The notes beneath the pieces were generated by a model. The model did no database searches and was not told the DNA's origin. It saw only the letters and a program-made list of their open reading frames with translations. Shown here in pieces: positions 23,478-53,463 of a DNA stretch of 64,000 bases. Location of the stretch: NCBI GenBank assembly GCA_937910685.1, contig CALEMP010000021.1, positions 53,428-117,427 on the forward strand, in the 5' to 3' direction. The DNA comes from an uncultured bacterium. GTDB taxonomy: Bacteria > Planctomycetota > UBA1135 > GCA-002686595. Both the position numbers and the translations under genes were made by a program. Positions within the stretch are counted from its first letter, which is position 1; every line of letters begins with the position of its first letter.

Positions 23478-23792
23478 ATGTCGAAGGAGGAACATCAGCG
23501 CAGAGTCGTGATGGAGAGGCGGGTCGCCAAGCGGTGGATCATGCGCCTAGCCCAAGAGCAACATTCGGTAACGGTGTTGTATCAGGCTAAGGAGAGCGGT
23601 CAGCGCACGGCGAATTTCATCCGTGCCTTCCGTGATGGGAAGGCAGCGGTGAAGGGTGTCCCCACCATCCCGGACCTGGGCATCGATGAGTCCTTTGACG
23701 GCTTGCACCTGTGGTCGAGTGACCGTGAAGCATTGGCCCGCCTCGCGACCTGGTTCGAGAAGCGTGGTTACGAAACAACTGGAGTCTGGTAG
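23478..23792 (+). CDS. hypothetical protein
   Basis: 104 aa. The N-terminus carries 'RRVAKRWIMR' (the recurrent motif). Confidence 0.5.
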   Translation: MSKEEHQRRVVMERRVAKRWIMRLAQEQHSVTVLYQAKESGQRTANFIRAFRDGKAAVKGVPTIPDLGIDESFDGLHLWSSDREALARLATWFEKRGYETTGVW

Positions 23793-28146: not shown

Positions 28147-28746
28147 TTGGGAACTTGGACAACCAGCATCGACCGTTTGACCCGCCGTTATTTGGCGAAG
28201 ACAGCATCGGTCTCAAAGGGGGCCGGTGAGGTTCGGTTCATCAAAGATCGCGGTGGTGACCATCAGGAGTGGGGGTGGAATCCACCTGGTGCTGGTGAAC
28301 GGTCCATCGATCCTGATTACAAATTCAACGCAAGCAATCTCAAGCCCTTGGCCAAGACCTTGCGGTCTGCCCTGATGGCCCTGGGTCACCTTCAGACGGC
28401 TCGCGGCACATTTACCAAGATCAAGAGTCAGAGGGTGTCCCCCGATGGTAACCTGGGCGGCAAAGGTTACGTGATGCCGATCAAGGACATCCGTAAACAG
28501 TTGTCCAATTGTGATGAGGCTCTGTCTTCCATCACCGATACCATCTATGACGAGATCCACGCGATCCATTGGCACCCGGATGTCCATGACACCGGAGGTG
28601 ATCCTCGTGATCGGGATGGCGTCAAAGAAATCATGGACGACGTGGAAGAGATTCGGGATGACCCCGAGGAGTGGGCTGAGGAGGAGGAGTCAGACATGGC
28701 CAAGACTTCGTCACTCGCACTTCGGTGGTTGAGGAATAGAGCATGA
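28147..28746 (+). CDS. hypothetical protein
   Basis: TTG 28147 lies 6 nt after GGAGG (the ORF is open from 28006 but overlaps the previous gene). 'DRLTRRYLAK' is near the N-terminus and 'LALRWLRNRA' is at the C-terminus. Confidence 0.45.
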   Translation: MGTWTTSIDRLTRRYLAKTASVSKGAGEVRFIKDRGGDHQEWGWNPPGAGERSIDPDYKFNASNLKPLAKTLRSALMALGHLQTARGTFTKIKSQRVSPDGNLGGKGYVMPIKDIRKQLSNCDEALSSITDTIYDEIHAIHWHPDVHDTGGDPRDRDGVKEIMDDVEEIRDDPEEWAEEEESDMAKTSSLALRWLRNRA

Positions 28747-35024: not shown

Positions 35025-35336
35025 ATGGGAAGACTCAGGGCCAGGACCGCCACCTCACAAGTGGATCGTGATCTCCACTCCAGGTTGGCAAAGGCCATAC
35101 AGGAGTTGGGGGCGGCACGGGACATCTGTGTGCGACTTGGTCGGGACCGGGCTCTCCCTCCCCAAGAGAAGGCCCGTGCTACAGCTACAAGGCAAACTAT
35201 CCAACAGGCGCTTGCGCTTGTGGATAGCATAGGCCACCTGTCGGGACGTTCCAATATGGACTCGGACCTTATGCCCGAAGCGGACAAGCGGCCACGCCGG
35301 GAACAACCTGAGCGCTTCAGTGGGGAGTCTAGCTGA
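35025..35336 (+). CDS. hypothetical small protein
   Basis: 103-aa ORF. The stop overlaps the portal start. Confidence 0.45.
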   Translation: MGRLRARTATSQVDRDLHSRLAKAIQELGAARDICVRLGRDRALPPQEKARATATRQTIQQALALVDSIGHLSGRSNMDSDLMPEADKRPRREQPERFSGESS

Positions 35337-37177: not shown

Positions 37178-37987
37178 ATGGGCTTCAGCAGAACAGCATG
37201 TGTGATCGCGGGTGGCACCTGGGGAGGGAAGCCTTCCCTGCTGAAGATCCGGGACCGGAACTACACACCTCGTGTGAAGCTAATCCGTGATCTAGTCAAG
37301 GGTGTAGAGGCCGTCTACATCTGCGATGTCACCACCGAATGGATTGAAGGACTCAATGAATACGGCATCGGGGTGGTATCTTCGGCTCTCCTGGTTGTGG
37401 ATGATGAGACCGAAAAGAAGGAAGCCAAGAAGTCGCGGGATGGTGACCTCATCCTTGAGGTCTTGGGCCAGAAAACGCTCAAAGCGGCAGTCAGGAAAGC
37501 TGTCGCCAACAAGATCTCCGGGCACACTCTGGTGTCCGACGGCAAAGAGATTTGGGCAGTTGAATACGATCCCGATGAAGCGCCCGAACCGGTAGCCCGG
37601 TGTTTTGAAAAGGATGAGTTGGTCGTCCGTACCAACCACGGGGTGTTCCTGGAGAATGCGGGATACACTACGGGGGCTGACAAGGACTCCTCTCACGAAC
37701 GACGACAGAAGGCGACCACCACCCTCAAGAAGGTGAAGTCACCAGAGGACATTGCTCCATCGCTCATTCACGTTCGACGCAAGAATCGGGAGCACCCCAA
37801 CAACGTGATTCGGGACACGGACAAGATGTCCACCTCGTCCCAGATGGTCCTCATCCCCGGCGACCTGGAGGTGCTGTTCTACCCCATTCCGGGCCGGGTG
37901 GACTTCCTGGGACTGGAGGACAGGCTGCCCAAGGGACGCAAAGGTAAGGTCAAGGTCCGGGTCTTCCACTACTCGGACCTCGCTGCG
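37178..37987 (+). other. domain: Ntn-hydrolase (peptidase C45 / acyl-CoA:6-APA acyltransferase-like)
   Basis: 'MGFSRTA-CVIAGG' (Cys8 after a short propeptide), 'IRDRNY', 'EGLNEYGIGVVSSA', 'LVVRTNHGVF'. Confidence 0.5.
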
Positions 37988-40900
37988 GATAAGCCTGATA
38001 CTCATGAGGTTGAAGGTGACCTCGACCTGTTCCGACTGTTCACTTATGGCTCCATGATAGGTGACCCCCCACAAGCGGGCGACCTGATACGGTCGGAAGT
38101 GGGCACCCTTGAAGGACACCACATCGCGTACAACCGCATGAGTGAAAACCGGGAGTCCCTGGTGATGGGGACAGAGCCGGGAGGGAAGATCGTGGGGGTA
38201 CTTCACGAGTACCCCGTGACCGTTGCTCAAAAAGTGTTGGGATCGGTTGATCGTCGTGAGGGCTTTCGTCCTGACCGGGAAAGGGCGAAGAACAGTTACA
38301 CCCGTACCCCGGTGGTGGTCAAAACCAAGGGTGGTGAGGAAGTGTGGGCGCTGGCCTTCCTCTCCAACCCAGAGCATCCCTCGTACTTCAAGCCCCTGAG
38401 TGTGGCTCAAGCGGTCAAGCAACTCAGCGGGGACGAGGATGGTGCGAAGAAAGGGCGGCGCTACCTGCGGTCCCTGCGACGATTCATGGAGCAGTACGAC
38501 ATTCAGGATGACTACATCATGGGCATCCTGGAAGGGATCGGCTCAAAACCGGACAAGGAGGCCACGGTGAGCACCGGGGCACTGAACCGACGCCACATGG
38601 AGGCATCGAACCACCGGCGGTCCATGGCCCTGGTGAAGTGGCTCTCCGACCTGGCCCGCAAGCTGGGGGTGGGTGAGCACGTCTACGTGGTGGGGGGTGC
38701 CGTTCGGAACTTTGTCCTGAACGCCCCCATCAAGGACATCGACGTGATGATCGACTCGGTCGCCCTGCGTGGCCGGGACAGCGAGTGGTTCGCCAAGGAG
38801 ATCCTCAAGGCGGCCCCGGTGGACATCAACCTCACCACCAACAACTACGGCGTGGCCCTGCTCCATGTGAACGAGGAGTGGATCGTCGGGGGCGAAGACC
38901 TCAAGGGCGAGGACATCGAGATCGCCACCGCCCGCAAGGAGTCCTACGGGGGCGATGGCGGCAAGGGGTACAAGCCGCACCTGGTGGAACCCGCGACGGC
39001 TGCCGAGGATGTGTGCCGCCGGGAGTTCACCTTCAACTGCCTGATGTGGCGACTGCACGACCTGGCCAACGGCCCGGACAAGGCGGAGATCGTCGACCTG
39101 ACCGGGTGCGGGATCTCCGACCTGGCCGAGGGCGTCATGCGATGCCCCTCCGACCCGGACAAGACCTTCTCGGACGACCCCAGCCGCATGGTCCGGGCCA
39201 TCAAGTTCCTGGTGAAGTACGGCTTCCGCATCGACGGGGAGGTGCAAGCCTCCATCAAGCGCAACAAGGCGAAGCTGAAGAACATCCCGCCGTCGCACCT
39301 GGGCTCCATGCTCCTGGACTTCGTCCTCAAGGAGTCCACCGCGACCAAGGCCCTCACGGAGATGGACCGGCTGGGGCTGCTCGACGTCCTCAAGGAGGTC
39401 ATCCAGAAGGACAAGGGCCTGCGGAACACGCTGGCGAACCACGGGGACAGCAGCAACGTCGCCCACATGTTCGTGCTCATGGACTTCGGCCTCCCGTCAG
39501 GGAAGCAGCTGGGGTTCCTGAACCCCCGACAGGTGCAGCGGGTCCGCGACATCACCGTGGAGATGACCGCGTCCGAGGCCAAGGAGTACGTCGCCAACCT
39601 CAACCAGCCGAAGCTGGACAACCGCGCCCTCATGCAGGAGTTCGACCTCAAGGGTGCTGGGATGGGCCAGGTGAAGACGCTGGCCCGCGAGGCCATGCTC
39701 GACAACCACCTGCTCGCCTTCCACCAGGGCAAGCTCACCCAGGCGGTGCGTCGGGCACTGGGCGGGGGCCGCCGTGCGGCATCCTCGGATGTGCAGTACA
39801 TCGGGGTCGTCCTCGACCCCATGGACACGCAGAAGCTGATCCGTCGCTACGGGCAGCTGCACCCCGAACGGCACGCCCACCACATGACGGTGTGGCACTT
39901 CAGGGATTCTTCAGAGGCCCCCCTGCGCCTCCCCTGGGGCCGCACGGTCGACCTGAAGGTCAAGGCCCACCTGGCCGACGACAAGGCCCAGGTCGTGGTC
40001 GTGGACCCGCCCAGGGCGCTTCGCTCGAAGGGGCGGACATCTCACATCACGGTGTCCACCAGCAGCGGCGTCGGCCCGAAGTACAGCAACGACCTGATCC
40101 GCAAGTGGGAGGAGATCCCGGCGGAATCGACTCACCCCACGGTGAGCGGCAAGGTGGCCTGGGTGGACCTGGCGGGGAAGACGCACTTCATGGCACCCCC
40201 GGAGGGGCGTGTTGCCTCGCGGGATGACAGCGAGGGGGACCGTCGCGCACGCCTTCAGGCGGCCAAGCAGTTCCCCGCCAACCTGCTCCCGAACGTCCAC
40301 ACGGTCGTCCCCGCGAAGTACATGGACAAGGTCCCCTACTGGGACGGCATGAAGGAGATCGCGGTCTACCGCAGCGTCCCCGAGGGGATCACGGAGATCC
40401 GACCCGGCGACTGGGTGACCCTGACCAGGAGCTACGCCCGGATCCATGGTCGGGGCACCATCCTGAGCAAGAAGGTGCCCGTGGGCCACGTCTACTGGGC
40501 GGGCACGGACATGAACGAGTGGTTCTACACGCCGGTCGGATCCGGTCGGGTGGCATCGCACACCGAGGTGGTGGTTCAGGGTGGGGGCAAGGAGCGGACG
40601 TTCACCGTCCCCGACTCCTCGGTCCCTCTCCTGCTGGGCGGCCTGCCCGAGGACGCCATCGGACGTGTGGCCGCCCGCTACGCCTCCACGCTGGTCCTGG
40701 ACCATGGGGGGGTGGACACCCGGCACGATGTCCCCGACGACTCCATGCCCCTGCTCTTCAACGCGACCTTCGCGGACGCGGTGAAGGGGGACAGCGAGGT
40801 GGTGGTTGCGGTGGAGCACCTGGTCGAGCGCAAGACGGCCTCGGACGGACCTCGCTACATGCAGGGCAAGCCCCACATGGCGGTCTACAAGAAGCTCTAC

Positions 40901-43438
40901 GACTGGATGCTGACACTGGCCCGGTCGAAGCACCCTGGATCAGGCCGGGCCTACGACCGGATCCAGGTGACCCTCATCGACAACGTGGACCAGGGTGCCC
41001 GGCGGGATCGGCCCGTGGACATGGGCCATCTCAAGCGGTACCTCGCGCAGGCTGTGGAGGCCATGCAGGGGGCCGAGGACTCCAAGGATGTCCGAGTGGT
41101 CGCTGAGATGGCGGCAGTCCTGCGGACAGGACGAATGGCGAAGGTGAACCTGCCCGCGTTGGTCGCGGAGTTCCTCAAGTCCCCGGCGGGGAGCTACCCG
41201 GACCCGATGTCCTGTTCGGACACCAAGGGCCGCTGTGACGGGGTGGCTACCAGGCTCTGCGAGTTCCTGGCGGAGCGTGGGGTGCCCTGCGAGGTGTGGG
41301 AAGGTACGGGCCTGATCCCCCCTCTCGGGAAGGACGCCCACAAGGAGTGGCTGGAGTTCGCGGGCGACCAGCAGAAGTTCCTGTTCCATGTCGTTGCAAG
41401 GGTGGGGAACAAGGTCGTGGATCTGACAGGTGCCCAGTATGGGGCGGCATTTGCGACCCCATACATCAAGCCGTTCTCTGTGTTCAAAGCCCAATGGAAG
41501 AAGGTGAGGCGGTCGCCCATGAGTAAGAGTGCAGATAGGGTTGCCCTTCGCTTCTTGCGTCAAGGATCCAAGCTGGTCTGGAGGTTCAAGGGTTCACAGA
41601 ACCCCTGGGAGCTTGCAACCAGGGCCGGGATCTACGTGTCCCGAGACAAAGAGTTCAAGGCGGGTTACCAGGAGGAAGGCCAACTGGTAGCCGCCCTGTT
41701 CACAAGCGTGAGCGAAGAATGCTTCTCCTTCGATATCGTGGTGGACCCTAACCATCAACGCAAAGGTTACGGGGCCAAGCTTCTTGAGCTTGCCATCGAC
41801 GAGTATGATGAGTTGCTCGACCCCTTCCCGGACATGGTCTTCTGCATTGATGCCGTGAATCCGGTGATGGTTCGTATGCTCAAATCCAAGGGCTTTGAAG
41901 AGACCGGTAAAGAGCAGGGTCACACCCTGATGACCCGACGTGCTTCCAAATTCAAAGACAAGAAGGAGGTGCCCAAAGCAGATGGCAAGGGCACAACCAC
42001 GGTCTATGAGTACAGCGAGAAGCAAGTCCAACATCGCAATCGGGAGAAGGCCAAACGGGTTGAGAAACTCCGCAAGGGGATGTCGGATCTGCGAGCGAAG
42101 TACCGCTCCGACCTGACCAGCAAGGACGACCTCACACGCTATACGGCGTTGGTGGTGGCCCTCATTGATGAAACCTTTGAGCGGGTGGGGAACGAGGGCT
42201 CCGCTAAGGATGGACACTTCGGGGTCACCGGCTGGCGTAAGAAACACATCACCCTGAGTGGGTCGAAGGCAACCATCAAGTACGTCGGCAAGAGCGGCGT
42301 CAGTCAGAGCAAGACGGTCACCGATAAGGGCATCCTGAGTGCTTTGAAGGCTGCTCTAGAGGGCAAGGGGCCAGAGGATCCACTGTGCGAAGGCGACGAG
42401 TGCCGTGTAACTGCCGAGGACGTCAACAAGTACCTCAAAGGCTTCGGGGTGACAGCGAAGGATCTTCGCGGCTTCCACGCCAACAGCGAGATGCAGAAGC
42501 GTCTCAAGGCCATCCGGTCGGGCAAGCTCCCGGAAGACAAGAAGGAGAGGGAGGAGAAGCTCAAGGCGGAGTTCAACAAAGCCCTGGAGGAGACGGCAGC
42601 GGAAGTGGGTCATGAGGCGGCGACCCTCAAGAGCCAATACCTGGTCCCCGGTCTAGAGGACGAGTTCCTCAAGGATGGCACGGTGAGCGAGGGGTTGAAC
42701 AAGCAGGCCGGGGCGTCCCGCAGAGACCTCCTGGATGCCCTGGACCACATGAGTGACAATGCTGGTCGCACCCTACGACTGGCAGATTTCGATGTGTCCC
42801 CTGTCAAGACGGTCAAGCTGGACGACCTCTATGACTATGATGATATCGACAGCTGGGCTGAATTTAGTGAGGGGGAGTTGGCTGACCTGGACCCGGAAGA
42901 AGAACTTGAGGCTGAACTGGAAGGCTTCCGTGGTGCAAGCTGGGCACGTCGGGCTATGACCTGGGTGAAAGCCGGAACGGTGCCGCCCGTAGTGGTTGTA
43001 GAGGCCCAGGAAGCAGTGGGCATTGGGGATGGGCGAGGGCGAATCACACTCGCCCTCGGTATGGGCTGGAGTCAGGTACCAATGGTCAAGTTGACTGAGA
43101 AGACCCACAAGCAAGCCGTCATTCGCGGGGTTCTTCGCACTTTGCTTCAGAAGGCCGACCAGATCAGCGCTGTGTTCGATTGGGGCGTGGCTGAGATGAA
43201 CGGTGTGACAAGCGATCCAGATGACAAGCTTGGTGGTGGTGTCCTGGGTTACGTGTACCGGGTCGGTCGGAACTGGTTCAGCGTCAAGCCTGGGGACCGT
43301 AGCCCCTCACACAGGCAGAGCTTGAGAGATGGTGTCGCTAGCATCCGTCGTGAGGCATGGCGGTCTGTCGGGGTCAACCAGGACAGCGTGAGCAGGGTTG
43401 CTTCGCGTTACCTTCAGCAGTGGGGGTACCCAGGGTGA
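37178..43438 (+). CDS. 2086-aa multi-domain polyvalent protein (probable virion-packaged effector)
   Basis: A single uninterrupted ORF directly after the portal gene. At least eight recognisable catalytic or DNA-binding domains are listed as separate features below. Confidence 0.85.
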   Translation: MGFSRTACVIAGGTWGGKPSLLKIRDRNYTPRVKLIRDLVKGVEAVYICDVTTEWIEGLNEYGIGVVSSALLVVDDETEKKEAKKSRDGDLILEVLGQKTLKAAVRKAVANKISGHTLVSDGKEIWAVEYDPDEAPEPVARCFEKDELVVRTNHGVFLENAGYTTGADKDSSHERRQKATTTLKKVKSPEDIAPSLIHVRRKNREHPNNVIRDTDKMSTSSQMVLIPGDLEVLFYPIPGRVDFLGLEDRLPKGRKGKVKVRVFHYSDLAADKPDTHEVEGDLDLFRLFTYGSMIGDPPQAGDLIRSEVGTLEGHHIAYNRMSENRESLVMGTEPGGKIVGVLHEYPVTVAQKVLGSVDRREGFRPDRERAKNSYTRTPVVVKTKGGEEVWALAFLSNPEHPSYFKPLSVAQAVKQLSGDEDGAKKGRRYLRSLRRFMEQYDIQDDYIMGILEGIGSKPDKEATVSTGALNRRHMEASNHRRSMALVKWLSDLARKLGVGEHVYVVGGAVRNFVLNAPIKDIDVMIDSVALRGRDSEWFAKEILKAAPVDINLTTNNYGVALLHVNEEWIVGGEDLKGEDIEIATARKESYGGDGGKGYKPHLVEPATAAEDVCRREFTFNCLMWRLHDLANGPDKAEIVDLTGCGISDLAEGVMRCPSDPDKTFSDDPSRMVRAIKFLVKYGFRIDGEVQASIKRNKAKLKNIPPSHLGSMLLDFVLKESTATKALTEMDRLGLLDVLKEVIQKDKGLRNTLANHGDSSNVAHMFVLMDFGLPSGKQLGFLNPRQVQRVRDITVEMTASEAKEYVANLNQPKLDNRALMQEFDLKGAGMGQVKTLAREAMLDNHLLAFHQGKLTQAVRRALGGGRRAASSDVQYIGVVLDPMDTQKLIRRYGQLHPERHAHHMTVWHFRDSSEAPLRLPWGRTVDLKVKAHLADDKAQVVVVDPPRALRSKGRTSHITVSTSSGVGPKYSNDLIRKWEEIPAESTHPTVSGKVAWVDLAGKTHFMAPPEGRVASRDDSEGDRRARLQAAKQFPANLLPNVHTVVPAKYMDKVPYWDGMKEIAVYRSVPEGITEIRPGDWVTLTRSYARIHGRGTILSKKVPVGHVYWAGTDMNEWFYTPVGSGRVASHTEVVVQGGGKERTFTVPDSSVPLLLGGLPEDAIGRVAARYASTLVLDHGGVDTRHDVPDDSMPLLFNATFADAVKGDSEVVVAVEHLVERKTASDGPRYMQGKPHMAVYKKLYDWMLTLARSKHPGSGRAYDRIQVTLIDNVDQGARRDRPVDMGHLKRYLAQAVEAMQGAEDSKDVRVVAEMAAVLRTGRMAKVNLPALVAEFLKSPAGSYPDPMSCSDTKGRCDGVATRLCEFLAERGVPCEVWEGTGLIPPLGKDAHKEWLEFAGDQQKFLFHVVARVGNKVVDLTGAQYGAAFATPYIKPFSVFKAQWKKVRRSPMSKSADRVALRFLRQGSKLVWRFKGSQNPWELATRAGIYVSRDKEFKAGYQEEGQLVAALFTSVSEECFSFDIVVDPNHQRKGYGAKLLELAIDEYDELLDPFPDMVFCIDAVNPVMVRMLKSKGFEETGKEQGHTLMTRRASKFKDKKEVPKADGKGTTTVYEYSEKQVQHRNREKAKRVEKLRKGMSDLRAKYRSDLTSKDDLTRYTALVVALIDETFERVGNEGSAKDGHFGVTGWRKKHITLSGSKATIKYVGKSGVSQSKTVTDKGILSALKAALEGKGPEDPLCEGDECRVTAEDVNKYLKGFGVTAKDLRGFHANSEMQKRLKAIRSGKLPEDKKEREEKLKAEFNKALEETAAEVGHEAATLKSQYLVPGLEDEFLKDGTVSEGLNKQAGASRRDLLDALDHMSDNAGRTLRLADFDVSPVKTVKLDDLYDYDDIDSWAEFSEGELADLDPEEELEAELEGFRGASWARRAMTWVKAGTVPPVVVVEAQEAVGIGDGRGRITLALGMGWSQVPMVKLTEKTHKQAVIRGVLRTLLQKADQISAVFDWGVAEMNGVTSDPDDKLGGGVLGYVYRVGRNWFSVKPGDRSPSHRQSLRDGVASIRREAWRSVGVNQDSVSRVASRYLQQWGYPG
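38024..38377 (+). other. domain: gamma-glutamyl cyclotransferase / AIG2-like
   Basis: 'LFTYGSMIGD' (YGS[LM] motif), 'GTLEGHHIAYN', 'VDRREGF...SYTRTPVVVKT'. Confidence 0.65.
38630..39757 (+). other. domain: CCA-adding enzyme / poly(A) polymerase-family nucleotidyltransferase
   Basis: 'VYVVGGAVRNFVLNAPIKDIDVMI' (GGxVR..DxD), 'CRREFTFNCLMW' (RRDFTIN-like), 'DDPSRMVRAIKFLVKYGF' (EDPLRxLRAxRF-like). Confidence 0.8.
39785..40132 (+). other. domain: 2H phosphoesterase (CPDase/LigT/CNPase-like)
   Basis: Two H-x-T-x motifs, 'HHMTVWHF' and 'TSHITVSTSSGVGPKYSNDLI', 55 aa apart. Confidence 0.7.
41195..41497 (+). other. domain: transglutaminase-like / papain-fold Cys-His-Asp core
   Basis: 'GRCDGVATRLCEFLAERGVPCEVWEGTG' ... 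'FLFHVVARVGNKVVDLTGAQYG'. Confidence 0.5.
41585..41947 (+). other. domain: GNAT N-acetyltransferase
   Basis: 'VAALFTSVSEECFSFDIVVDPNHQRKGYGAKLLELAIDEY...AVNPVMVRMLKSKGFEE'. Confidence 0.65.
42125..42667 (+). other. domain: type IB topoisomerase catalytic domain
   Basis: 'ALIDETFERVGNEGSAKDGHFGVTGWRKKHITL', 'IKYVGKSGVSQ', 'VTAKDLRGFHAN', 'EVGHEAATLKSQYLVP'. This is an Arg-Lys-Arg-His-Tyr set in canonical order. Confidence 0.7.
42725..43102 (+). other. domain: ParB/sulfiredoxin-fold (ParB N-terminal-like)
   Basis: 'VKLDDLYDYD...', 'AVGIGDGRGRITLALGMGWSQVPMVKL'. Arg sits where most family members have His. Confidence 0.5.
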
Positions 43439-45843
43439 AGCGGAACCTTTCCGTCAATCGGGTAGCTCAACTGTGGCTTCAACGTGTTGCCACCAAATCC
43501 GACTATGAGAAGGAGGACGAGGAGGTCCGTCGACTCCAACGCCCCCCGCCCAAGAAAAAGCCGCCACGTCATGATCTGCGTCGTGAGACCATCAAGGAGG
43601 ATGACAAGGATACACGCACCCAAGGGGCGGACGAGGACAGGGACTTGTCTCTGAACTACAAGCGCATTGCCTCCATCGACAACCTCACCATCCGCTACCT
43701 CTTCGCACTGGATGACCGGGCGGCAAAGGCAACTCGCAAGCAGAAGGTCGATAAACTGGCACCGGGCAAGTACGACAACAAGACCAGCACCGGGAAGTGG
43801 CGCTCAAAGAATCAGGACGGCACCCAGAAGTACTTTGAGACCAAGGACGAGGCCGAAAAGTACGCTGAAACCAACGACCCCTCTAAGGAAGATAAGCCCG
43901 GCGGTGAGACCAAGGATCCCGACAAGCCTGCACCCGAGGAGAAGGGGGACAGCAAGCCTGAGAAGGAGGAACCTGAAGCCGATGACAAAGAGGAGGAACC
44001 TGAAGCTCCAGCCAAGCCTAAATCGAAGTCCCCACGACAACAACATCGGGAGGAACGTCAGAAGGGCTTAGATGACATGCGGGGGCAAATGAAATCCCTC
44101 TTCGGAGCCTTTGAGACCCCCGAGGAAAAGAAGCTCAAGGCAGAGAAGGCCACCCTCGACAAGCAAGCCGAAGTGGACAAGGCCACCAAGGAGAAGCTGG
44201 AGAACAAGCTCAAGCCCATCAAGGACTTGCACGCTCAAATCAAGAAGCTCGACGAGGAGATCAAGCTCAAGGACGACGACAAGTACAACGACCCCTACCG
44301 GAGCCGGGGTTACGGCGGTGGCAGTGGCGGTGATAGCCTCTCCGATATCTTTGATTCTGACGAGTATCAGGATGAGGCTATTGAGCCCGATGCGGACGAG
44401 AAGGACGCCGAACTCAAGAAGTTGATGATTGAGAAGGCGGACCTGGTTGCCACCATGAAGGAGGAGCTGCAAAAAGCTTCCAAGGAGCAAGAGGAACTCA
44501 AAGAGGTTGAAGCCCGGATGCAGATTAGCAAGGACCGGGGCTATGAGGTGGACGATAAGCTCCGTGACATGGGCGGTGGCTACAGCTACGGACGGGATGA
44601 GGATGAGTCCGCCACCTTCACGCTCAAGCAAGACGAGGCAGCGACACACGCCCGCAAAAGCTTTGAGTCAATGAGCGAGGCAGACCAGGTTGCAGCGGCG
44701 GCAGCTTATCGGGATGCCATCAAGACCATGACGGACGATTGGTCCGACAGCGGTCTCTCCGATGCCCATGTAAGCATGGCGGTGAAGGCCCTGAAGAAGC
44801 CTTTCGCCGGGGTGTCAAAAGCAAGCCCCGAAGAGCGTGGGCGGATGATGGCTGAGTATGCCTTCGCTCGTCGCTTCGTGTTGGACCCCGCTGTCGTGAG
44901 TGGTCATCCCGTATCCGACCAGGAAGAGTCCAGGGAGCAGATGGAGGCACGGGCGATAGCCTCTATGAAGGTCTACGACCGCATGACCCCGGAGCTTCGT
45001 GGTGAAGCTGCTGAAATGGTGTCCAAGCAGCTGGCTCAAGCAGACCCGGACAGTCCTGAATACTCTCAGTTAATGGCAGTGGCACACGGGCTGTACGTCG
45101 CTGCCTTGATGGTGGTGGATGAGGATGGTCGCCCGGAGTCCCTGGACATCAAAGATTCCAAGGGGGAGCGACTCTTCCCGGTACCTTCAGAGAAGGCGAG
45201 CGCCCTTGCTCGTACCTTGAAGAAGAATGGGGACGTGGGCCTGATGTTCGCCCCTCCTGGAAAGTTCTTCGAACCAGAAGGACGTGAGGCGGTTGGACGT
45301 GCCCTGGATTCCCTCAATGACAATCAGCTGAAGGATGCCGTATCTGATGACTGGAAGGAGATTCTGGACCTCCTCACCAGTGTGGATGAATACGGTTTGC
45401 CCGTGGTCAGTTCCGAGATCAGGAACTTCGTTCGGGGGTTTTTGAAGTCGGAAGCCATCAACGACATGACCACGGTGCAGGGGTTTGTGGAAGCTACCTG
45501 CAAGGCCAATGGCATCGACGACGTGAAGGCTATTTTTGAAGAGGGTCGCAAGATGCGGGGCGCTCTCAAGAACAATAAGGATCTGAAGGCTGACCGTGAA
45601 GCACTGCAGAAGTGTATCATGGAAGCTGGGGCGGACCAGGATAGCATTGATGCCTGCCACGAACAGGCCAAGGAACGTCAGGTCAAAGCCCTACAAGCGG
45701 TTCAGGATCACGTGGAAAAAACCTACGACAAACATCCTGACCCGACCGACCCTTCCGTGGCCAGAGCACGAGCTGCAGTGAAGAACAAAGATCCAGAAGC
45801 TCTAGATCTGAAACTCCAAGAGCCCGAAAAAGGGGCTGAATGA
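43435..45843 (+). CDS. 802-aa highly charged Lys/Glu/Asp-rich protein (internal virion or scaffold-like)
   Basis: GTG 43435 overlaps the TGA of the upstream gene. The N-terminus has 'NRVAQLWLQR'. Long low-complexity K/E/D tracts and coiled coils. Confidence 0.6.
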   Translation: MKRNLSVNRVAQLWLQRVATKSDYEKEDEEVRRLQRPPPKKKPPRHDLRRETIKEDDKDTRTQGADEDRDLSLNYKRIASIDNLTIRYLFALDDRAAKATRKQKVDKLAPGKYDNKTSTGKWRSKNQDGTQKYFETKDEAEKYAETNDPSKEDKPGGETKDPDKPAPEEKGDSKPEKEEPEADDKEEEPEAPAKPKSKSPRQQHREERQKGLDDMRGQMKSLFGAFETPEEKKLKAEKATLDKQAEVDKATKEKLENKLKPIKDLHAQIKKLDEEIKLKDDDKYNDPYRSRGYGGGSGGDSLSDIFDSDEYQDEAIEPDADEKDAELKKLMIEKADLVATMKEELQKASKEQEELKEVEARMQISKDRGYEVDDKLRDMGGGYSYGRDEDESATFTLKQDEAATHARKSFESMSEADQVAAAAAYRDAIKTMTDDWSDSGLSDAHVSMAVKALKKPFAGVSKASPEERGRMMAEYAFARRFVLDPAVVSGHPVSDQEESREQMEARAIASMKVYDRMTPELRGEAAEMVSKQLAQADPDSPEYSQLMAVAHGLYVAALMVVDEDGRPESLDIKDSKGERLFPVPSEKASALARTLKKNGDVGLMFAPPGKFFEPEGREAVGRALDSLNDNQLKDAVSDDWKEILDLLTSVDEYGLPVVSSEIRNFVRGFLKSEAINDMTTVQGFVEATCKANGIDDVKAIFEEGRKMRGALKNNKDLKADREALQKCIMEAGADQDSIDACHEQAKERQVKALQAVQDHVEKTYDKHPDPTDPSVARARAAVKNKDPEALDLKLQEPEKGAE

Positions 45844-46684: not shown

Positions 46685-47332
46685 ATGGGTTCAGGTTCAG
46701 CTCGTCAATCCTATGTCGATTACCAACAGAGAGCTTCGGAGTTCTCTGTTGGTGACTCCGTGTACTACTCGATGGATGGTCAAAACCACATCGGGGGTGT
46801 CACAGCCGTGTACCCGGCCATAGGTATGATTGACGTGGAGTACCCTGATGGTAGTGTTCGTCTTCCGGTAGAGGACGTGACCCGCTACGAGTCCAAGGAC
46901 GTTATCCCTCCCGCACTTGAGCACGACAACGTACCGGGTGGGGCAGGGACCGTTCGGGTGCCCGGTGGACCCGTTCCCAGGGCAGCACGGGCCGAACTTG
47001 AAAGGCATGCCAACCGGGTAGCCCAAGCCTGGGTGAAGAAGTCACTCTATTGGGCAGGCAAGGACCGCAAGTACAAGGCAACCTCAGCCGAGATCGCAAG
47101 TGGGAGGTTCTCCTGTCCCAAGTGCAAGAATCACGTGGATGAGGATGAGCCTGTGTACCTTCGCCCCGCCAACTACAAGCGGAGCGAGGGTGTGAGTGAG
47201 CGCCTACTGGGTTGCCCAGAGTGCCTGTTCCTCATCAAGCGTTGTGACATCATCGGGCATCCAGAGTTTGTAGACCCGGATGCCCCCATGGATCCGTTGG
47301 CCCGACACCGTGTAGCTTCGGGGGTGCCCTGA
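46685..47332 (+). CDS. hypothetical protein with zinc-ribbon Cys pairs
   Basis: ATG 46685. 'CPKC...CPEC' and 'NRVAQAWVKK'. Confidence 0.5.
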   Translation: MGSGSARQSYVDYQQRASEFSVGDSVYYSMDGQNHIGGVTAVYPAIGMIDVEYPDGSVRLPVEDVTRYESKDVIPPALEHDNVPGGAGTVRVPGGPVPRAARAELERHANRVAQAWVKKSLYWAGKDRKYKATSAEIASGRFSCPKCKNHVDEDEPVYLRPANYKRSEGVSERLLGCPECLFLIKRCDIIGHPEFVDPDAPMDPLARHRVASGVP

Positions 47333-50265
47333 TGGCTTTCATGAAGTATGCACGGGCTTCCGTGGTGCACCCCCACATCGGGAAGACCGAATGGGCGAAG
47401 GTTCGGGTAGCTGCCAAGACCTCCAACGGAGATCTGAATGACAACCTGGTTGCCAGGGCGTCTGAGCTGTTAGGTAAGCCCTTCAACCCCAAGGACTTCT
47501 TGCTGACCCATGCGACCATCGTCGCTTCGGTCGACACGTTTGAGCCCACAGGGATCAAGACGGGTTCGGTCCTTGAAGGTGGCTTCCGGGTGAACAGGAA
47601 GTACGGTAACTTCCGAATCAAGGCGTCCTGCGACAAGTTCATAAACAACAACTTGGATTCCTGGGACCGGGACGTGCTCCTCAAGAGCTACCGCACCTTC
47701 GTCGGGGGTCATAACTTCTGCTTTGCACCGGGGACGCAGGTGCGTTTGGCAGATGGGTCATACAAACCCATTGAGGATGTGATTGTGGGGGATCTGGTGC
47801 TCACCCATATGGGTAGAGCCCGTAAGGTCACCAGGTTGTTCAAGCGTCTCTATGAGGGGGACATTCAGGCTGTTCAGATTGGGCGATTCAAGGATCCAAT
47901 TCTGGCGACAGGCAATCACCCCTTCCGAGCGTTGAGTGTTGAGGCTCCTCCCCTAGGTCGGTACAAGTCCGGGAAAGCGAAGTCGGCGCTACGTTACCGG
48001 AAAGATCAGATAGTCAAAGCTCTCCGTGGAGAGCAGGCAACCTTTGGCTCTAGCACCCCTGCTTTGCGGAAGGTCGTGGATGCCATGGGGTCTGGCCCAA
48101 TGACGAGGGCCGAAGTGTCCTCTTTGTTGGGTTGCGGGGATGCCGGTAGCTTGCTCAGGCAATACCCCAGGTATTTCGGTGTCAGGCCACTAGCCCAAGA
48201 TGAGAGGCCCAAGTTGCGGGGGCGTTCCCGACCCCGCAAGATGTGGTTCCTCAAAGACACTGCTCCTGAGATCCCCTCGCAAGAGGTGAGGATCATCCCT
48301 GAGTGGGTCAATGCAGGAGACCTGGGCACCACATCCTGGGTTCGGGGGCCGAATTGCAATACTGGATCAGTATCCTCTCTGAAGCGAGCCTCACTACTGG
48401 GCTACTATGCCGCAGAGGGGTGTCTCGCATGGGAGGGTAATGAGAACCCGGTTGCTGTTATTTTGAGTTTCGGTCCTCACGAACGAACTCTTGCCGAAGA
48501 TGCTCAAAAGTTGGCGGAGGACGTGTGGCCTGAAGCTACCGTAAAGATCCATCCGACGCAGACGTCTCTGCGGACAACAATCCGATCAAAGGCTGCAGCT
48601 GCCTGGTTCCAGAAGATGTGTGGTCATCTGGCCCACCTCAAGACGTTGCACCCTTCCGTACACGACTGGGACAGGGAAACTCAGCTTCAGTTGTTGGCTG
48701 CTTGGATGACTGGGGATGGGAACCTACACAAAGGTACCCTCCGACTCCGTGGAGCTTCTGTCTCACGGAAGCTGTCTGACCAGATGCAGTTGGTGGCCGA
48801 GCAGTGTGGTTTGAAGTCCTTCACGGTATTTGAGAAGCGCAACATCGGTGAGGTTGGCAGCCAAGTGCAGATGGTGGTCGGTGGAGAACCCCGAATTTTC
48901 GATGTGATCTCCCGCCACCACTGTTGGACGACCTACGTGTCTCGTTCGGATTGTACCGAAATTGTGTCTCGGTCGAAGCGGTGGGGGCCAGTTGTACCGG
49001 TATCCAACAAGAGCCAGGATCTGGCTTGGTGGGAGGGGGCTAGGCTATATCAGGTCACCAGCAACACAAGCATCCCCTATTCAGGTTATGTCCACAACAT
49101 CGAGGTCGAGGAGGATCACTCCTACGTTGTCGACCACGGGGTCTGTGTCCATAACTGCGAGCATGTTCAGGTAGAAGAACTGTCCAAGGGTCGCATCATA
49201 GACTCTGTAGCCCGCGACATTGGTGACAGTGTTTACACGGACATTCTCATTGCTACCGACCGGAAGCACAGAGATCTCGTCACCGCCATTGTGAATGGCA
49301 AGATGAGCACCCTGTCCATGGGGTGCAGCGTTGACGGCACTCAATGTACGAAGTGCGGGCACTGGGCTGCGGATGAGACAGAGATGTGCAACTGCGTTAA
49401 ATACGCAAAGGGCAACATCTTCTTCGACGAGAACGGCAACAAGCATCGGGTCGCGGAGCTTTGTGGTCACAAGAGCATAGGCCCGACTGGAGGGGTTCAG
49501 TTCATTGAGGCTAGTTGGGTTGCAACCCCGGCTTTCACGGGTGCGGTGCTCAGGAACATCCTGGAGCCTACCGAAAGTCAGTTTCGGCAGGTTCAGGCTA
49601 TCCTGAACACCCCACCACCTCAGTGGTCATCTGACACTCAGATGAAGGCTGCTTTCCTCACGGACTCCAGCTCTGCTTTTGGCTTCTCCTCTGGAAATGA
49701 CCTCCTGGCTGAGTCCAGTGATTTCTTTGCTGGGTGGCAGGATTCCGAAGAGCCTGCGGAAGATGCTGAGGCAAAACCCGCAGAGGAGCCTAACCCCTTC
49801 AAGGATATTGAAGAGGAGATGGTCACCTTCGTGTCCGACCGGGTGAAGAAGCGTCTGCAAGAGCAGATGAAGGGTGACGAAGCCGAGAAGGTTCTCAACC
49901 CTGAGACCCCAACCTCGACTAACGAGACTCTCGTCAAGGAAGGGTCAATTCTTCGCACTGCAACGGATGTCCTCATCCGTACGGCGACAACCAGAGCAGC
50001 CCTCGTGGATGGCATTGCTCAGTTGGCGCAGGCTGGTGGTATCAACATCCCTATCCGGGTCTATCGGGTAGCGGTGAAGATGGGATCTGCGGACTTTGCA
50101 GATCCCACTCGTTTTCAGGCTTGTCTAGCTTCACTGGGTCAGCCCTCTTCTGCTGAGATTCGGGTACTCCGTAAGCTTGGCAAGCTCATCGCACATTGGG
50201 AACGCCAGACCCAAGGTGCGAGTCATACTTTTCAATCTGGTAGTCGCCACAAGGAGACGCAATGA
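47332..50265 (+). CDS. intein-containing protein; extein resembles a T4 gp21-type (assemblin-fold) prohead protease with a long acidic C-terminal extension
   Basis: Spliced text: 'YRTFVGGHNF-CEHVQVEELSKGRIIDS...VYTDILIATDRKHRDLVTAIVNGKMSTLSMGCSV...VQFIEASWVATPAFTGAVL'. Compare gp21 '..GELNHP..VYGRARV..IRAGWIPGVSSRG..VDAVWGPSAPDAWV'. It lies between the portal and the scaffold/capsid genes. The protease call is tentative. Confidence 0.45.
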   Translation: MAFMKYARASVVHPHIGKTEWAKVRVAAKTSNGDLNDNLVARASELLGKPFNPKDFLLTHATIVASVDTFEPTGIKTGSVLEGGFRVNRKYGNFRIKASCDKFINNNLDSWDRDVLLKSYRTFVGGHNFCFAPGTQVRLADGSYKPIEDVIVGDLVLTHMGRARKVTRLFKRLYEGDIQAVQIGRFKDPILATGNHPFRALSVEAPPLGRYKSGKAKSALRYRKDQIVKALRGEQATFGSSTPALRKVVDAMGSGPMTRAEVSSLLGCGDAGSLLRQYPRYFGVRPLAQDERPKLRGRSRPRKMWFLKDTAPEIPSQEVRIIPEWVNAGDLGTTSWVRGPNCNTGSVSSLKRASLLGYYAAEGCLAWEGNENPVAVILSFGPHERTLAEDAQKLAEDVWPEATVKIHPTQTSLRTTIRSKAAAAWFQKMCGHLAHLKTLHPSVHDWDRETQLQLLAAWMTGDGNLHKGTLRLRGASVSRKLSDQMQLVAEQCGLKSFTVFEKRNIGEVGSQVQMVVGGEPRIFDVISRHHCWTTYVSRSDCTEIVSRSKRWGPVVPVSNKSQDLAWWEGARLYQVTSNTSIPYSGYVHNIEVEEDHSYVVDHGVCVHNCEHVQVEELSKGRIIDSVARDIGDSVYTDILIATDRKHRDLVTAIVNGKMSTLSMGCSVDGTQCTKCGHWAADETEMCNCVKYAKGNIFFDENGNKHRVAELCGHKSIGPTGGVQFIEASWVATPAFTGAVLRNILEPTESQFRQVQAILNTPPPQWSSDTQMKAAFLTDSSSAFGFSSGNDLLAESSDFFAGWQDSEEPAEDAEAKPAEEPNPFKDIEEEMVTFVSDRVKKRLQEQMKGDEAEKVLNPETPTSTNETLVKEGSILRTATDVLIRTATTRAALVDGIAQLAQAGGINIPIRVYRVAVKMGSADFADPTRFQACLASLGQPSSAEIRVLRKLGKLIAHWERQTQGASHTFQSGSRHKETQ
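47719..49155 (+). mobile_element. intein (479 aa) with LAGLIDADG homing-endonuclease domain
   Basis: aa 130-608. Starts 'CFAPGTQVRLADG' with block B 'TGNHPF'. LAGLIDADG motifs 'LLGYYAAEGCL' and 'LLAAWMTGDGNL'. Ends 'HGVCVHN' with the +1 Cys (49156-49158). Confidence 0.85.
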
Positions 50266-51803
50266 GCGCACATCGTCAGCGAATGACATGGGCAGCACGC
50301 CAGGCGGCTGCCCCTGCCGCGATCCCCGGTTATGGGGTCGAGGATCAGGATCACCCGGCTCACCAGCCCGATCCCTCACATGAAGACTACGCCAAGGGTG
50401 ACCCCTCAGCGTGGGCTGAAGATCCGCATCCTGCGCCGTATGGCGACAGTGGACCCCCGGCTCTTCCGGGTTACGGTGTTGAGGACCAGGACCACCCTGC
50501 ACATGGCGGGCAGGTTGGTCGTCAGGCTGGCCTCAAGGAGGCAGTGCGTCGGCGTGCAGCCAAGTGTCTCGTGATCGCACGGCACACCCTGGGCAAGACT
50601 GCCAGCACGGCGTCTATCGAGGAGCGAGCTTTCGGGCTGATGGACCTCTCGGACGCGAAGATCGAATCAGCCCTTCAGCGTATCGCTGGTCAGCGCAAGC
50701 AGGCTGGTGGGTTCTTCGCTGATGACCTCGACCTGATGGGCGAGGAGGATGACCTCTTCTCCGAAGACATGGACGACGACCTTCTCGGCTTTGACGATGA
50801 AGGTGACCTCTTTTCTGAGGATCTCCTCGGATGTGGGGACGACATGTACGGGGAGGAGGACGACGAAGCTCTTCTTGCTCGTTTTGCACGTCTGGAGCGA
50901 AAGGTTGCCCGGCTTCGTCGACAGGCAGACCAGAACGACCCTGACGGTGAGACCCTCACTCCTGATGCCAAGTCGGAGGACGAGGAGAAGGGCGAGGAGG
51001 CCAAGGCCAACAAGGCAGCATCGGTGTCCAAGGAGGCAGCATGGTTTGCTATCTCCGATGGCGACCGTGATGGTTTCGTGACCGCCCGTGAATGGCGTGG
51101 TTCCCGGAAGGCCTTTCTTGCCATGGACAAGGATCGCGACGGCATCCTCTCCTTCAGCGACATCCGACTGGCTGCCGATGAGGAAGCGGACGACGAGGAA
51201 GAAGAGACCGCCAGCAAGAAGGCATACGGTCACTTCTCTGATCTGGACGACGAGGAGATGGACATGCTCAGCGCGATGGGCGATGACATCTCCGCCTGTG
51301 GCGAGCCGATGGGCAGCATCTACGCATCCAAGAAGTCCGAGGACGAGGATGATGCCGACGCCGACGAGGGCGATGCCGACGAGGGCGACGAGGACGAGGA
51401 TTCCGACGAGGATGCCAGCAAGGAGGCGAGCTTCTTCGCTGGTCACGGTGACCCGATGGGTCTGTCTGAGGAGTCGGTCCTGACTGCCGCTGACGAAGCA
51501 GCCTTCGCCAACGTGTTCGGGCGCAACGCTTCGGATGATGAGGACGAGGACGAGGACGAGGAGGTCGCCAGCAAGAAGGCGAGCAAGAAGTCTGAGGACG
51601 AAGAGGCTGATGAGGACGAGGAAGAGGAGGTGGCAAGCAAGAAGGCCAGCCGCACCGCTTCTCGTCGCCCGCAGCCTCGCAAGAAGGCCGCTGGGGTTCG
51701 CACCTTGGGTAGCCTGTCCGGTGGTGGAAGCACCAAGGGTAGTGAGGTCGATGAGCTGTCCAAGCTCTGGGCGAGCGCCCCGGACGTGTCCGACGCCTTC
51801 TAG
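50262..51803 (+). CDS. acidic scaffold-like protein with an EF-hand pair
   Basis: 513 aa, immediately upstream of the decoration/capsid genes. Long Asp/Glu tracts, repeated 'VASKKAS', and two canonical EF-hand loops. Confidence 0.55.
   Translation: MSAHRQRMTWAARQAAAPAAIPGYGVEDQDHPAHQPDPSHEDYAKGDPSAWAEDPHPAPYGDSGPPALPGYGVEDQDHPAHGGQVGRQAGLKEAVRRRAAKCLVIARHTLGKTASTASIEERAFGLMDLSDAKIESALQRIAGQRKQAGGFFADDLDLMGEEDDLFSEDMDDDLLGFDDEGDLFSEDLLGCGDDMYGEEDDEALLARFARLERKVARLRRQADQNDPDGETLTPDAKSEDEEKGEEAKANKAASVSKEAAWFAISDGDRDGFVTAREWRGSRKAFLAMDKDRDGILSFSDIRLAADEEADDEEEETASKKAYGHFSDLDDEEMDMLSAMGDDISACGEPMGSIYASKKSEDEDDADADEGDADEGDEDEDSDEDASKEASFFAGHGDPMGLSEESVLTAADEAAFANVFGRNASDDEDEDEDEEVASKKASKKSEDEEADEDEEEEVASKKASRTASRRPQPRKKAAGVRTLGSLSGGGSTKGSEVDELSKLWASAPDVSDAF
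50325..50504 (+). repeat. two copies of a 13-aa repeat PGYGVEDQDHPAH
   Basis: Copies at 50325-50363 and 50466-50504. They are identical at the protein level and diverged at synonymous sites. Confidence 0.9.
51057..51161 (+). other. EF-hand pair (two 12-residue Ca-binding loops)
   Basis: 'DGDRDGFVTARE' and 'DKDRDGILSFSD'. Both fit D-x-D-x-D-G-x-(I/V)-x-x-x-(E/D). Confidence 0.7.
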
Positions 51804-52587: not shown

Positions 52588-53463
52588 ATGAACAACGTCA
52601 CGAACGCGGTCAAGCAGAAGATCATCGGAGAGTACGTCAAGACCCCCCAGGGTCGCGCCAAGCTCGCCGCTTCCATGACCCAGCCGCTCCGTACGCGGCG
52701 AGACTACGCCGCCGTTGGCCGCAAGACCTTCTTGGTTGAGCAGCTCCCGGACGGTGCCCTTCCGATCTACGACAAGGATCCCGATGTGACGGCCTACGTG
52801 GTTGGTGAGGAGGGTCAGAACATCCTGGCCATCACCAAGCCCAGGCGCGTCATCTTCCCCCTCTTTGAGATCGCGTCCAACCCCGAGATCCCGCTCACGC
52901 AGATCAAGGAGCGACGGTTCGACCTCATCGAGCGCAGTCAGGATCTGGGCCGTGCTCAGATTCAGGCTGCAGAGGACGAGCGTGTCTTCGCGGTTCTCGA
53001 TTCAGTGGCGACCTCTGGCTTCGACAGCCTTCCGGGTCAGTTGAACCCTGACATCCCGGTCATCGCCCCCATTTCGGGTGCGGTCATCGCGGATGCCTTT
53101 GCGCTCATTGAGCGGCACGACCTCCGGGTCGCCCGCATCTACATGAACGCACGGGACTACGCGGATATCCGCAAGTTCGGGCGCGACATCCTCGACATCG
53201 AGTCCCAGGCCACCCTGCTCAAGACCGGACTCCAGGGCGTCATCTACGGCGCTCAGGTGGTCACGAGCCGACTGGTCCCCGTGGGCACGGTCTACCTGGC
53301 CTGTGAGCCCGAAATGTTCGGACGTATCCCCGTACGCACCGAGCTGACCGTCTTGTCCGCAGATGATCCCCGACGTCGTATGATCGGGTTCTCGATCTTC
53401 GAGAACCTCGGCATCGGCGCATACAACCCTCGCGGACTTGCACGACTCACTGTTACCCGGTAA
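52588..53463 (+). CDS. putative major capsid protein (HK97/encapsulin-like size class)
   Basis: 291 aa. Strong GC3 bias. Preceded by scaffold-like and decoration-like genes and followed by two hairpins/terminators. 'RRDYAAVGRKTFLVEQLPDGALPIYDKD' resembles small HK97-fold capsid/encapsulin N-termini. Confidence 0.6.
   Translation: MNNVTNAVKQKIIGEYVKTPQGRAKLAASMTQPLRTRRDYAAVGRKTFLVEQLPDGALPIYDKDPDVTAYVVGEEGQNILAITKPRRVIFPLFEIASNPEIPLTQIKERRFDLIERSQDLGRAQIQAAEDERVFAVLDSVATSGFDSLPGQLNPDIPVIAPISGAVIADAFALIERHDLRVARIYMNARDYADIRKFGRDILDIESQATLLKTGLQGVIYGAQVVTSRLVPVGTVYLACEPEMFGRIPVRTELTVLSADDPRRRMIGFSIFENLGIGAYNPRGLARLTVTR

Follow-up and report, generated by a model that had tools for sequence, protein, structure and literature searches.

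Why does one short peptide recur at the ends and domain joints of otherwise dissimilar proteins encoded near the head genes of a phage? The question is raised by a 64,000-nucleotide stretch of contig CALEMP010000021.1 (GenBank assembly GCA_937910685.1, positions 53,428 to 117,427 of the forward strand), filed under an uncultured bacterium of the Planctomycetota lineage UBA1135 and here called the window. The peptide, specific to this lineage of phages, has the consensus (S/A)-h-(D/N)-R-V-A-x-R-(W/Y/F)-L-x-(K/R), spans 12-18 residues and is referred to below as the tag. Its strong copies lie in proteins A, B, D, E and F (Table 1) and in a giant 2086-residue protein that is the main tag carrier. 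All 59 callable genes of the window lie on the + strand. Its major capsid protein matches gp27 of Bacillus phage G (PDB 6WKK; E=8.7e-61) and is 84% identical to that of LR745208 (a 485-kb uncultured phage), 48% to that of Tunturiibacter phage Tunturi_5 (309 kb) and 37% to that of phage G itself. A protein identical to F is found on a 326 kb contig. Together, the capsid matches and the 326 kb contig argue that the window belongs to the genome of a huge phage with phage G among its relatives. There are no close cultured relatives at the DNA level, and at the protein level there are domain matches only.

A recurrent peptide in the window and in related loci

Within the 20,377 residues of the window proteins, the regular expression R[VL][AT]xx[YWF][LIV]x[KRQ], chosen post hoc, matches seven times against a mean of 0.09 in within-protein shuffles (n=2000), a count reached in 0/2000 shuffles, and RVA..[YWF][LIV] matches five times against a shuffled mean of 0.13. 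A first-pass annotation of this DNA had held such peptides to be rare by chance and had named enrichment over shuffled controls as a check; the counts agree on both points, and the peptides that it listed are all present on the + strand, a few of them offset by one codon (43388 starts at V, 40208 and 40547 at R). All seven strong copies fall within coding frames, and the three frames of the opposite strand of the window hold no copy. Because synonymous Arg and Val codons vary between copies, the signal resides at the protein level and not in the DNA. A DNA-level repeat at gene borders, such as a promoter, terminator or recombination signal, is ruled out by the differing codons and the motif-free reverse strand. 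The replication genes, as the same annotation observed, hold no copy (0 in 6,976 residues versus 7 in 13,401), a weakly significant difference (p about 0.05). In a blind 9-mer ranking the motif windows come highest after acidic low-complexity runs. Taken without related loci, the evidence from the window is suggestive, not conclusive.

We fetched 130 related loci, 80 around the capsid gene (the best 80 of 560 confirmed), 10 around protein B and 40 around the portal gene, and built a profile with a 7-bit cut-off from motif copies other than that of E. The window-derived regular expression finds 25 copies on the gene strand of related loci and 0 on the other. The profile matches at or above 7 bits 57 times on coding-strand frames and 0 times on the opposite strand of the capsid-gene loci, and 32 versus 3 times in the portal loci, where two of the three opposite-strand matches fall inside a real 643-residue gene on that strand. 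Conservation in related phages, a further check proposed at the outset, is borne out by these counts and by the homologues of F described below. Unique matches are enriched at C-termini, with 20/64 lying within 25 residues of the stop versus 7.3 expected; the N-terminal count, taken from open-frame starts, is 14 observed versus 13 expected and is crude, as open frames extend upstream of true starts. In the families of A, B, D and the 282-residue protein encoded from 27285 (the 27285 protein), the tag sits at residues 3-20.

Conservation of the tag between variable flanks

Homologues of protein F consist of a conserved helical domain, the sequence FGGG, a linker variable in both length and sequence, and a tag of the form S-[SA]-V-D-R-V-A-x-R-[YW]-L placed 10-20 residues from the C-terminal end. 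A loose regular expression recovers the tag in 72/91 homologues, and about 88/91 carry it when clear variants are counted. Column identity is 0.66-0.85 in the motif versus 0.12-0.44 in the linker, and the W/Y position is about 95% aromatic.

Family B, with 582 homologues, bears an N-terminal tag at residues 5-20 that scores at least 5 bits in 56/120 homologues among the matches listed and is visible in weaker form in most others. At the other end, B homologues either stop after an acidic block EEWAEGEEAEMD or add K-[TML]-A-S, 3-15 residues, RVAxxYLxRR and a stop; the C-terminal tag is present in 51/100 tails, with K-h-A-S upstream of it in 46/51. LALRWLRNRA at the end of window protein B, listed by the first-pass annotation, is therefore a true C-terminal copy, orthologues having RVAxRYL there. 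Protein A keeps its tag N-terminally in all orthologues found (MTKRVAQRWLRAV, MAKRVAEKWLRR and, in LR745208, MAKSVAGRWLVD), and orthologues of the 27285 protein, whose tag is degenerate in the window, hold clear copies (AIDRLADRYLVRM, AVQRVADRYLVKL).

The motif forms an island of conservation between variable flanks. Because the F motif is conserved beside a variable linker, and the C-terminal tail of B is otherwise unalignable across homologues yet retains the tag, these patterns indicate that the tag is selected as a separate element. Several early assignments gain no support. GRVAARYAST and MAVARFLYS score below 4 bits with the profile and are unsupported; GRVASRDD and GRVASHTE, once taken for truncated copies, fit another motif, [KR]-h-A-S, of the K-T-A-S/G class considered below; and the term 'structural-module proteins' was too broad for carriers that include the products of 23478, 27285 and 28147 (A, the 27285 protein and B), which are without recognisable function.

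A predicted amphipathic helix behind a flexible linker

AlphaFold2 models were built with family alignments for F and B. The F model has a three-helix body, a low-confidence linker (residues 105-113) and a separate helix (114-135), and the B model has a helix at residues 3-21, a stretch (23-31) below 50 in predicted local distance difference test (pLDDT), a helical core and a terminal helix at 173-198. One face of the tag helix presents V, A, W/Y, L and the next h-A and the other R, R and K, with a hydrophobic moment of 0.46-0.76. The models thus predict the tag to be a separate basic amphipathic helix behind a flexible linker. A Foldseek comparison of both models with the PDB returned generic helical bundles only, none at E<=0.001, and PDB sequence searches with E and F gave no matches. 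The first-pass proposal that a short amphipathic helix labels many proteins alike, at their termini and between their domains, is strengthened by the helix models in two carriers, by the C-terminal enrichment and by the way in which the tag follows modules. The copy with its Arg at nucleotide 41537 is not kept in the one orthologue available.

Tags follow modules through gene fission and fusion

The giant protein joins ChaC (residues 288-452), PolyA_pol/CCA nucleotidyltransferase (502-740), 2H phosphodiesterase (912-979), GNAT (1496-1549) and topoisomerase IB (1617-1818) domains, as assigned by Pfam, with an additional ParB-C-like segment. It amounts to an RNA-repair-like and DNA-topology tool kit that is probably delivered with the DNA. 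In most relatives the giant protein and D form one reading frame with tandem tags at the joint (RLAAEWIRKAAGRVASAYLYRQ in locus L057). The first half of the tandem is the counterpart of the C-terminal tag on the window's giant protein, and the second half that of the N-terminal D tag. In the window the GTG start of D at 43435 overlaps the upstream TGA (GTGA), and the D frame stays open for 84 nucleotides further upstream (43354-43438); the split reflects either true fission of the gene or a frameshift. By gene order D corresponds to Tunturi_5 gp328, annotated 'DNA ejection protein'.

D holds a second copy of the motif, interrupted in the window and intact in relatives as NYKRVAARWL. NLTIRYLFAL, which the first-pass annotation had given as a copy, is the second half of this real one, separated from the first by an insertion. 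In the 15 relatives aligned, the second copy closes a conserved module, ATKSxxEKEDEEVERL..KKPPRxDLRR..DPD..GADxDxDLSLNYKRVA. The charged segment between the two copies of D (43435-43750), ATKSxxEKEDEEVERLxRxxPxKKPPRxDLRR...DPD...GADxDxDLSLNYK, is strongly conserved in 15/15 relatives.

Other modules show the same behaviour. SSRVASRVASRWLASRR forms the end of a CCA nucleotidyltransferase that is encoded on its own and shares 53% identity with giant-protein residues 475-868, and a stand-alone HExxH peptidase-like protein of LR745208 starts with MSQVPQADRVASRFLQAK. In L017, F is joined to the N-terminus of the giant protein that follows it (60851 type), and fragments of the 60851-type giant are tagged N-terminally in L015 and C-terminally in L032. 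In L096 and L097 the 27285 gene is fused to B, with a tag at the joint. The tag thus follows modules through gene fission and fusion, and because each separately translated piece keeps a tag, it resembles an address label.

A candidate maturation site beside some tags

A second motif, KTA[SG], is found at 6 places in the window, where 0.76 would be expected, and 82 times on + frames of the related loci against 14 after shuffling and 6 on - frames, an enrichment of about six-fold. It lies in F, B and the acidic scaffold-like protein of the window (Table 1) and, in relatives, near the N-terminus of the capsid protein (DYVKTASGRAK). Because prohead proteases usually cut in the N-terminus of the capsid protein, in the scaffold and in small head proteins, K-T-A-S/G may be a site of the head maturation protease, and the protease encoded in the window is the candidate enzyme.

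In B, K-T-A-S/G stands between each tag and the body, always on the mature-domain side of the tag. The front reads tag-KTAG-EVRFIKDRGGD, with [KR]-h-A-G beside the invariant EVRFIKDRGGD as KTAG in 65 and RTAG in 22 of about 119 homologues, and the back reads acidic block-K[TML]AS-3 to 15 residues-tag-stop. The broader pattern K-x-A-[SG] lies within 16 residues upstream of 9/81 tags and downstream of 5/81, against a background of 1%, and often abuts the tag directly (KTASISRIAHRYL, KSASRVASRYL, PKMASRVALRHL); 67/81 tags have none nearby. The first-pass annotation had also raised the idea that its motif marks maturation cleavage sites. The idea better fits K-T-A-S/G, which flanks some tags on the mature-domain side.

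The protease gene is interrupted by an intein of ~479 residues (C130 to HN608, then C609) with Hint and LAGLIDADG homing-endonuclease domains. The intein is inserted after 'GGHNF', probably near the protease active site. Neither Pfam nor a PDB sequence search gave a match for the spliced extein, and its family label comes only from the PHROG match (Table 1). The text of the phage G proteomics paper contains no cleavage data.

Genomic setting

Tag carriers adjoin the head genes, lying between the portal gene and the protease, scaffold-like and capsid genes (Table 1). The acidic 513-residue protein is read as scaffold-like because a position between protease and capsid gene is the expected place of a scaffold. 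It is 26% Asp+Glu and has two canonical EF-hand loops, DGDRDGFVTARE and DKDRDGILSFSD, 23 residues apart, a pair kept in many, not all, relatives. Directly 3' of the capsid gene, a 706-residue frame (53605-55725) contains LAGLIDADG endonuclease, helix-turn-helix and DNA methylase segments and has the look of a mobile element inserted among the head genes. The gene shortly before the first tag gene (22392-23426) encodes a 344-residue protein, possibly a late transcription factor, in which two segments resemble sigma-70 region 4 or a helix-turn-helix (PHROG sigma factor matches).

Table 1. Tags, K-T-A-S sites and head genes of the window (positions in nucleotides; aa, amino acids; Arg, first nucleotide of the motif arginine codon in the seven strong copies)
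Feature	Position	Strand	Details
N-terminal tag of protein A (104 aa; gene 23478-23792)	23511..23549	+	MERRVAKRWIMRL; Arg at 23520, residue 15; regular-expression match; profile 17.6 bits
Degenerate N-terminal tag of 282-aa protein (gene 27285-28133)	27297..27341	+	LLQRVVDRHLIRLAS; from listing of termini
N-terminal tag of protein B (199 aa; gene 28147-28746)	28165..28209	+	SIDRLTRRYLA then KTAS; Arg at 28174, residue 10; regular-expression match; profile 13.1 bits
KTAS in B	28198-28209	+	
C-terminal tag of B	28714..28743	+	LALRWLRNRA up to stop; from homologue tails
Large terminase	32836-34770	+	
Portal	35336-37129	+	
Giant 2086-aa polyvalent protein	37178..43438	+	Directly 3' of portal gene; main tag carrier
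Internal copy in giant protein	41528..41566	+	SADRVALRFLRQG; Arg at 41537, residue 1454; ~40 residues before GNAT; profile 11.9 bits
C-terminal tag of giant protein	43385..43423	+	SVSRVASRYLQQ; Arg at 43394, residue 2073; 14 residues from end; profile 16.4 bits
Protein D (802 aa)	43435-45843	+	
N-terminal tag of D	43450..43488	+	SVNRVAQLWLQRVA; Arg at 43459, residue 9; regular-expression match; profile 14.5 bits
Interrupted second copy in D	43654..43710	+	NYKRIAS-IDNLT-IRYLFAL; 15-relative alignment reads DLSLNYKRVAARWL
Small protein	45952-46668	+	
Protein E (215 aa)	46685-47332	+	
Internal motif-like helix of E	47006..47050	+	ANRVAQAWVKKSLYW; Arg at 47015, residue 111; best profile score, 24.9 bits
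Head maturation protease with intein	47332..50265	+	PHROG 18299 on residues 610-739; Hint and LAGLIDADG domains
Acidic 513-aa scaffold-like protein, EF-hand pair	50262..51803	+	Between protease and capsid gene
KTAS in scaffold-like protein	50595-50606	+	Residue 112
197-aa protein		+	Between acidic 513-aa protein and major capsid gene
Major capsid protein	52588..53463	+	PHROG 2522; PDB 6WKK match
K-T-A-S at N-terminus of F	60437..60448	+	KTASSQAAW
C-terminal tag of protein F (137 aa; gene 60431-60844)	60770..60808	+	VVDRLARRWLHKR; Arg at 60779, residue 117

A possible address label for the capsid

What, then, could such a label address? Our preferred reading, which we regard as an evenly balanced proposition, is that the tag is a common address label that brings its carriers, injected multi-enzyme proteins among them, into the assembling capsid. 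A flexible linker joins the helix to the N- or C-terminus of unrelated proteins, the helix also sits at the joints of polyvalent proteins, and every carrier would dock by its helix onto one common partner inside the prohead. Candidate partners are the inner face of the conserved capsid protein, the acidic scaffold core, or E, whose own conserved helix resembles the tag. The capsid protein would suit a conserved tag because it is itself very conserved, at 86-97% identity across the fetched capsid loci versus 60-77% for the portal. Separately translated modules would each be packaged and later injected with the DNA, and in some carriers, above all B, the protease would remove the tag at K-T-A-S/G after loading.

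The targeting step is suggested by gene position and analogy. The packaging context fits, because carriers sit among head genes and packaging and injection have been predicted for polyvalent phage proteins encoded beside the portal (Iyer, Burroughs, Anand, de Souza and Aravind 2017; PMC5512222). To explain packaging and processing, that study turns to fusions with MuF or the portal and to zincin-like peptidases; the passages searched describe no shared linear tag. The giant protein qualifies as a polyvalent protein in the sense of that study, having multiple unrelated enzyme domains and being encoded among terminase-portal genes, and the tag would be an added layer on polyvalent-protein packaging.

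A more specific proposal for the partner, in our judgement a long shot, is that calcium-loaded EF hands of the scaffold-like protein grip the basic Trp/Tyr-Leu helices in the manner of calmodulin, recruit cargo to the prohead core and release it by a calcium change or through the protease. Loci that encode EF hands have 0.45-0.5 tags per 10 kb and loci that lack them 0.26, a comparison confounded by relatedness, and tags are also present in loci without EF hands.

Comparison with known targeting peptides

The design of the tag matches that of four known systems, the T4 capsid targeting sequence, the cargo-loading peptides of encapsulins, the encapsulation peptides of bacterial microcompartments and the tail of the herpesvirus scaffold. 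It is a member of none of them, because sequence, placement rules and partners differ or rest on analogy. As in the T4 internal proteins (IPI-III, Alt), a short peptide is common to unrelated proteins, which in T4 are packaged and injected. The T4 prohead protease removes the targeting sequence after loading, which resembles the removal proposed here for the tags of B. The T4 sequence is N-terminal only, whereas the tag is N-terminal in A, B, D and the 27285 protein and equally common at C-termini and joints. The T4 sequence also ends at an L/I-x-E cleavage site, whereas the tag is unrelated in sequence and its candidate cleavage motif is K-T-A-S/G; no L/I-x-E stands consistently after the tags, and the enriched neighbour is K-x-A-[SG].

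Encapsulin cargo-loading peptides share with the tag a short conserved sequence behind a flexible Gly/Ser/Pro linker, a usually C-terminal place and a range of diverse cargo enzymes, and F, with its FGGG-linker-tag layout and a linker of low confidence in the AlphaFold2 model, is laid out in the same way as encapsulin cargo. Encapsulin peptides bind the inner face of an HK97-fold shell, and gp27 of phage G, to which the present capsid protein is homologous, has an HK97-like fold. The encapsulin peptide, however, is strand-like and rich in Gly, Ser and Leu, whereas the tag is an unrelated basic helix and its shell would be a true virus capsid. Microcompartment encapsulation peptides are amphipathic helices of ~18 residues that stand at N- or C-termini or between domains of unrelated cargo enzymes, behind poorly conserved linkers. 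The anatomy of the tag, a predicted amphipathic helix at termini or between domains, is the same, an analogy of design only. The microcompartment shell is built of BMC-H/T/P proteins, which are not expected here, and no BMC-H/T/P shell gene appeared in Pfam and PHROG scans of the tested window proteins, which did not cover every gene.

In herpesviruses a C-terminal amphipathic helix of the scaffold binds the major capsid protein, and assemblin, a protease of the same fold as the prohead proteases of phages, cleaves an Ala|Ser bond immediately before this helix. The tail of B follows the layout of that maturation site in sequence (K-T-A-S, 3-15 residues, RVAxRYL, stop), as seen in the same 46/51 tagged tails. 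In herpesviruses only scaffold and protease carry the tail, whereas here many cargo-like proteins do.

Evidence against the capsid address and competing explanations

Several results weigh against a capsid address. One address would suffice for a giant chain that holds several copies, so targeting alone does not explain them. The tag is absent from phage G and Tunturi_5 (best score 3.4 bits) and is therefore not needed by this capsid type in general, and with only about four clear copies in the 485 kb of LR745208 its density is variable. The carriers A, B and the 27285 protein, lacking a recognisable function and any lead from fold searches, may not be virion proteins. The copy in E is conserved as RVAQAFVKKSLYWAxxDR among the E homologues detected in related loci, and because this stretch is longer than the tag, it may be an ordinary structural helix of E's own fold and not a free tag. 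The internal copy of the giant protein, missing from the sole orthologue with that region (L105), is the least secure of the seven. Because the window regular expression was chosen after inspection of the data, significance within the window is post hoc, and in a blind 9-mer neighbour test on the window alone the real maximum of 7 is not above noise (shuffles, 5 to 7).

Phage G has a recurrent N-terminal peptide of its own, x-R-L-K-K-h, in six small proteins whose genes neighbour those of its portal and protease. Within NC_023719 (3289-44131), gp5, gp9, gp10, gp12, gp13, gp17 and gp20 have similar start peptides (SRIKKI, TRLKKIK, SRLKKVS, KRLISK, KRLIKKS, ISRLKKTA). These hint at what may be a lineage-specific version of the same labelling idea.

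It is unlikely, in our view, that the helix serves not loading but the head maturation protease, as a docking or recognition element that marks cuts in giant precursors and propeptides. The protease gene does lie in the same module, tags do sit at the domain boundaries of giant proteins with K-x-A-[SG] enriched beside them and often abutting, and the Ala|Ser cut of herpesvirus assemblin offers a parallel. Against this, most tags (67/81) have no K-x-A-[SG] nearby, the residue after Ala in the tag is variable, so that the tag itself is no fixed cleavage site, cuts at tags 3-12 residues from an end would free only a tiny peptide, and retention of the tag by each stand-alone effector would go unexplained. 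A different role, in which the helices pair with each other or with that of E and so hold split polyvalent pieces and small partners together as one complex, like the docking domains of modular synthases, would account for the giant-protein and D tags, C-terminal and N-terminal respectively, which face each other 65 nucleotides apart and stand in tandem in fused relatives, for the same arrangement of F with the gene after it in L015 and L017 and of the 27285 gene with B in L096, and for the high conservation of the internal copy of E. We nevertheless think it improbable, because most window tags are without a tagged neighbour, with no C-terminal tag upstream of A, 27285 or B and no N-terminal tag downstream of B or F; because all copies are basic, which makes like-with-like pairing electrostatically unfavourable; and because tags persist in fused proteins, where re-association is unnecessary.

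A role after injection, with the helix as an effector handle for a host hub, membrane or DNA, strikes us as quite improbable: small helical proteins free of enzyme domains (A, B and F) are also tagged, the tags of B would be lost before injection if K-T-A-S/G is a maturation site, and nothing points to a particular host target, even though the carriers include enzyme types believed to act in the host (nucleotidyltransferase, 2H phosphoesterase, GNAT, topoisomerase IB and zincin-like peptidase) and binding to membranes or nucleic acids is within the reach of a basic amphipathic helix. The post hoc origin of the pattern, the blind test and the one unconserved internal copy are what could be said for a motif without function, produced by chance, composition or leftover ancestry. 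This explanation is very improbable and largely refuted by the comparative results, in which strand asymmetry of 57:0 and 32:3 recurs in independent loci, about 88/91 F homologues keep the motif beside a variable linker, and the motif recurs on otherwise dissimilar proteins with C-terminal enrichment.

Implications for huge phages

Huge phages are known almost only from metagenomes, and the contents of their capsids cannot be listed. If packaged proteins are what the tag marks, searching sequences for it would predict the protein arsenal that this whole clade injects, including its RNA-repair-like, acetyltransferase and topoisomerase modules, and if K-T-A-S/G is the protease site, mature termini would become predictable as well. 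A peptide of ~15 residues usable at either end of a protein would then also be a laboratory handle for loading foreign proteins into capsids, and the calmodulin-like proposal, if true, would amount to calcium-switched cargo loading in a virus capsid. For the phages themselves, a capsid address would explain how polyvalent proteins can be freely split and re-fused, each piece travelling with a ticket of its own.

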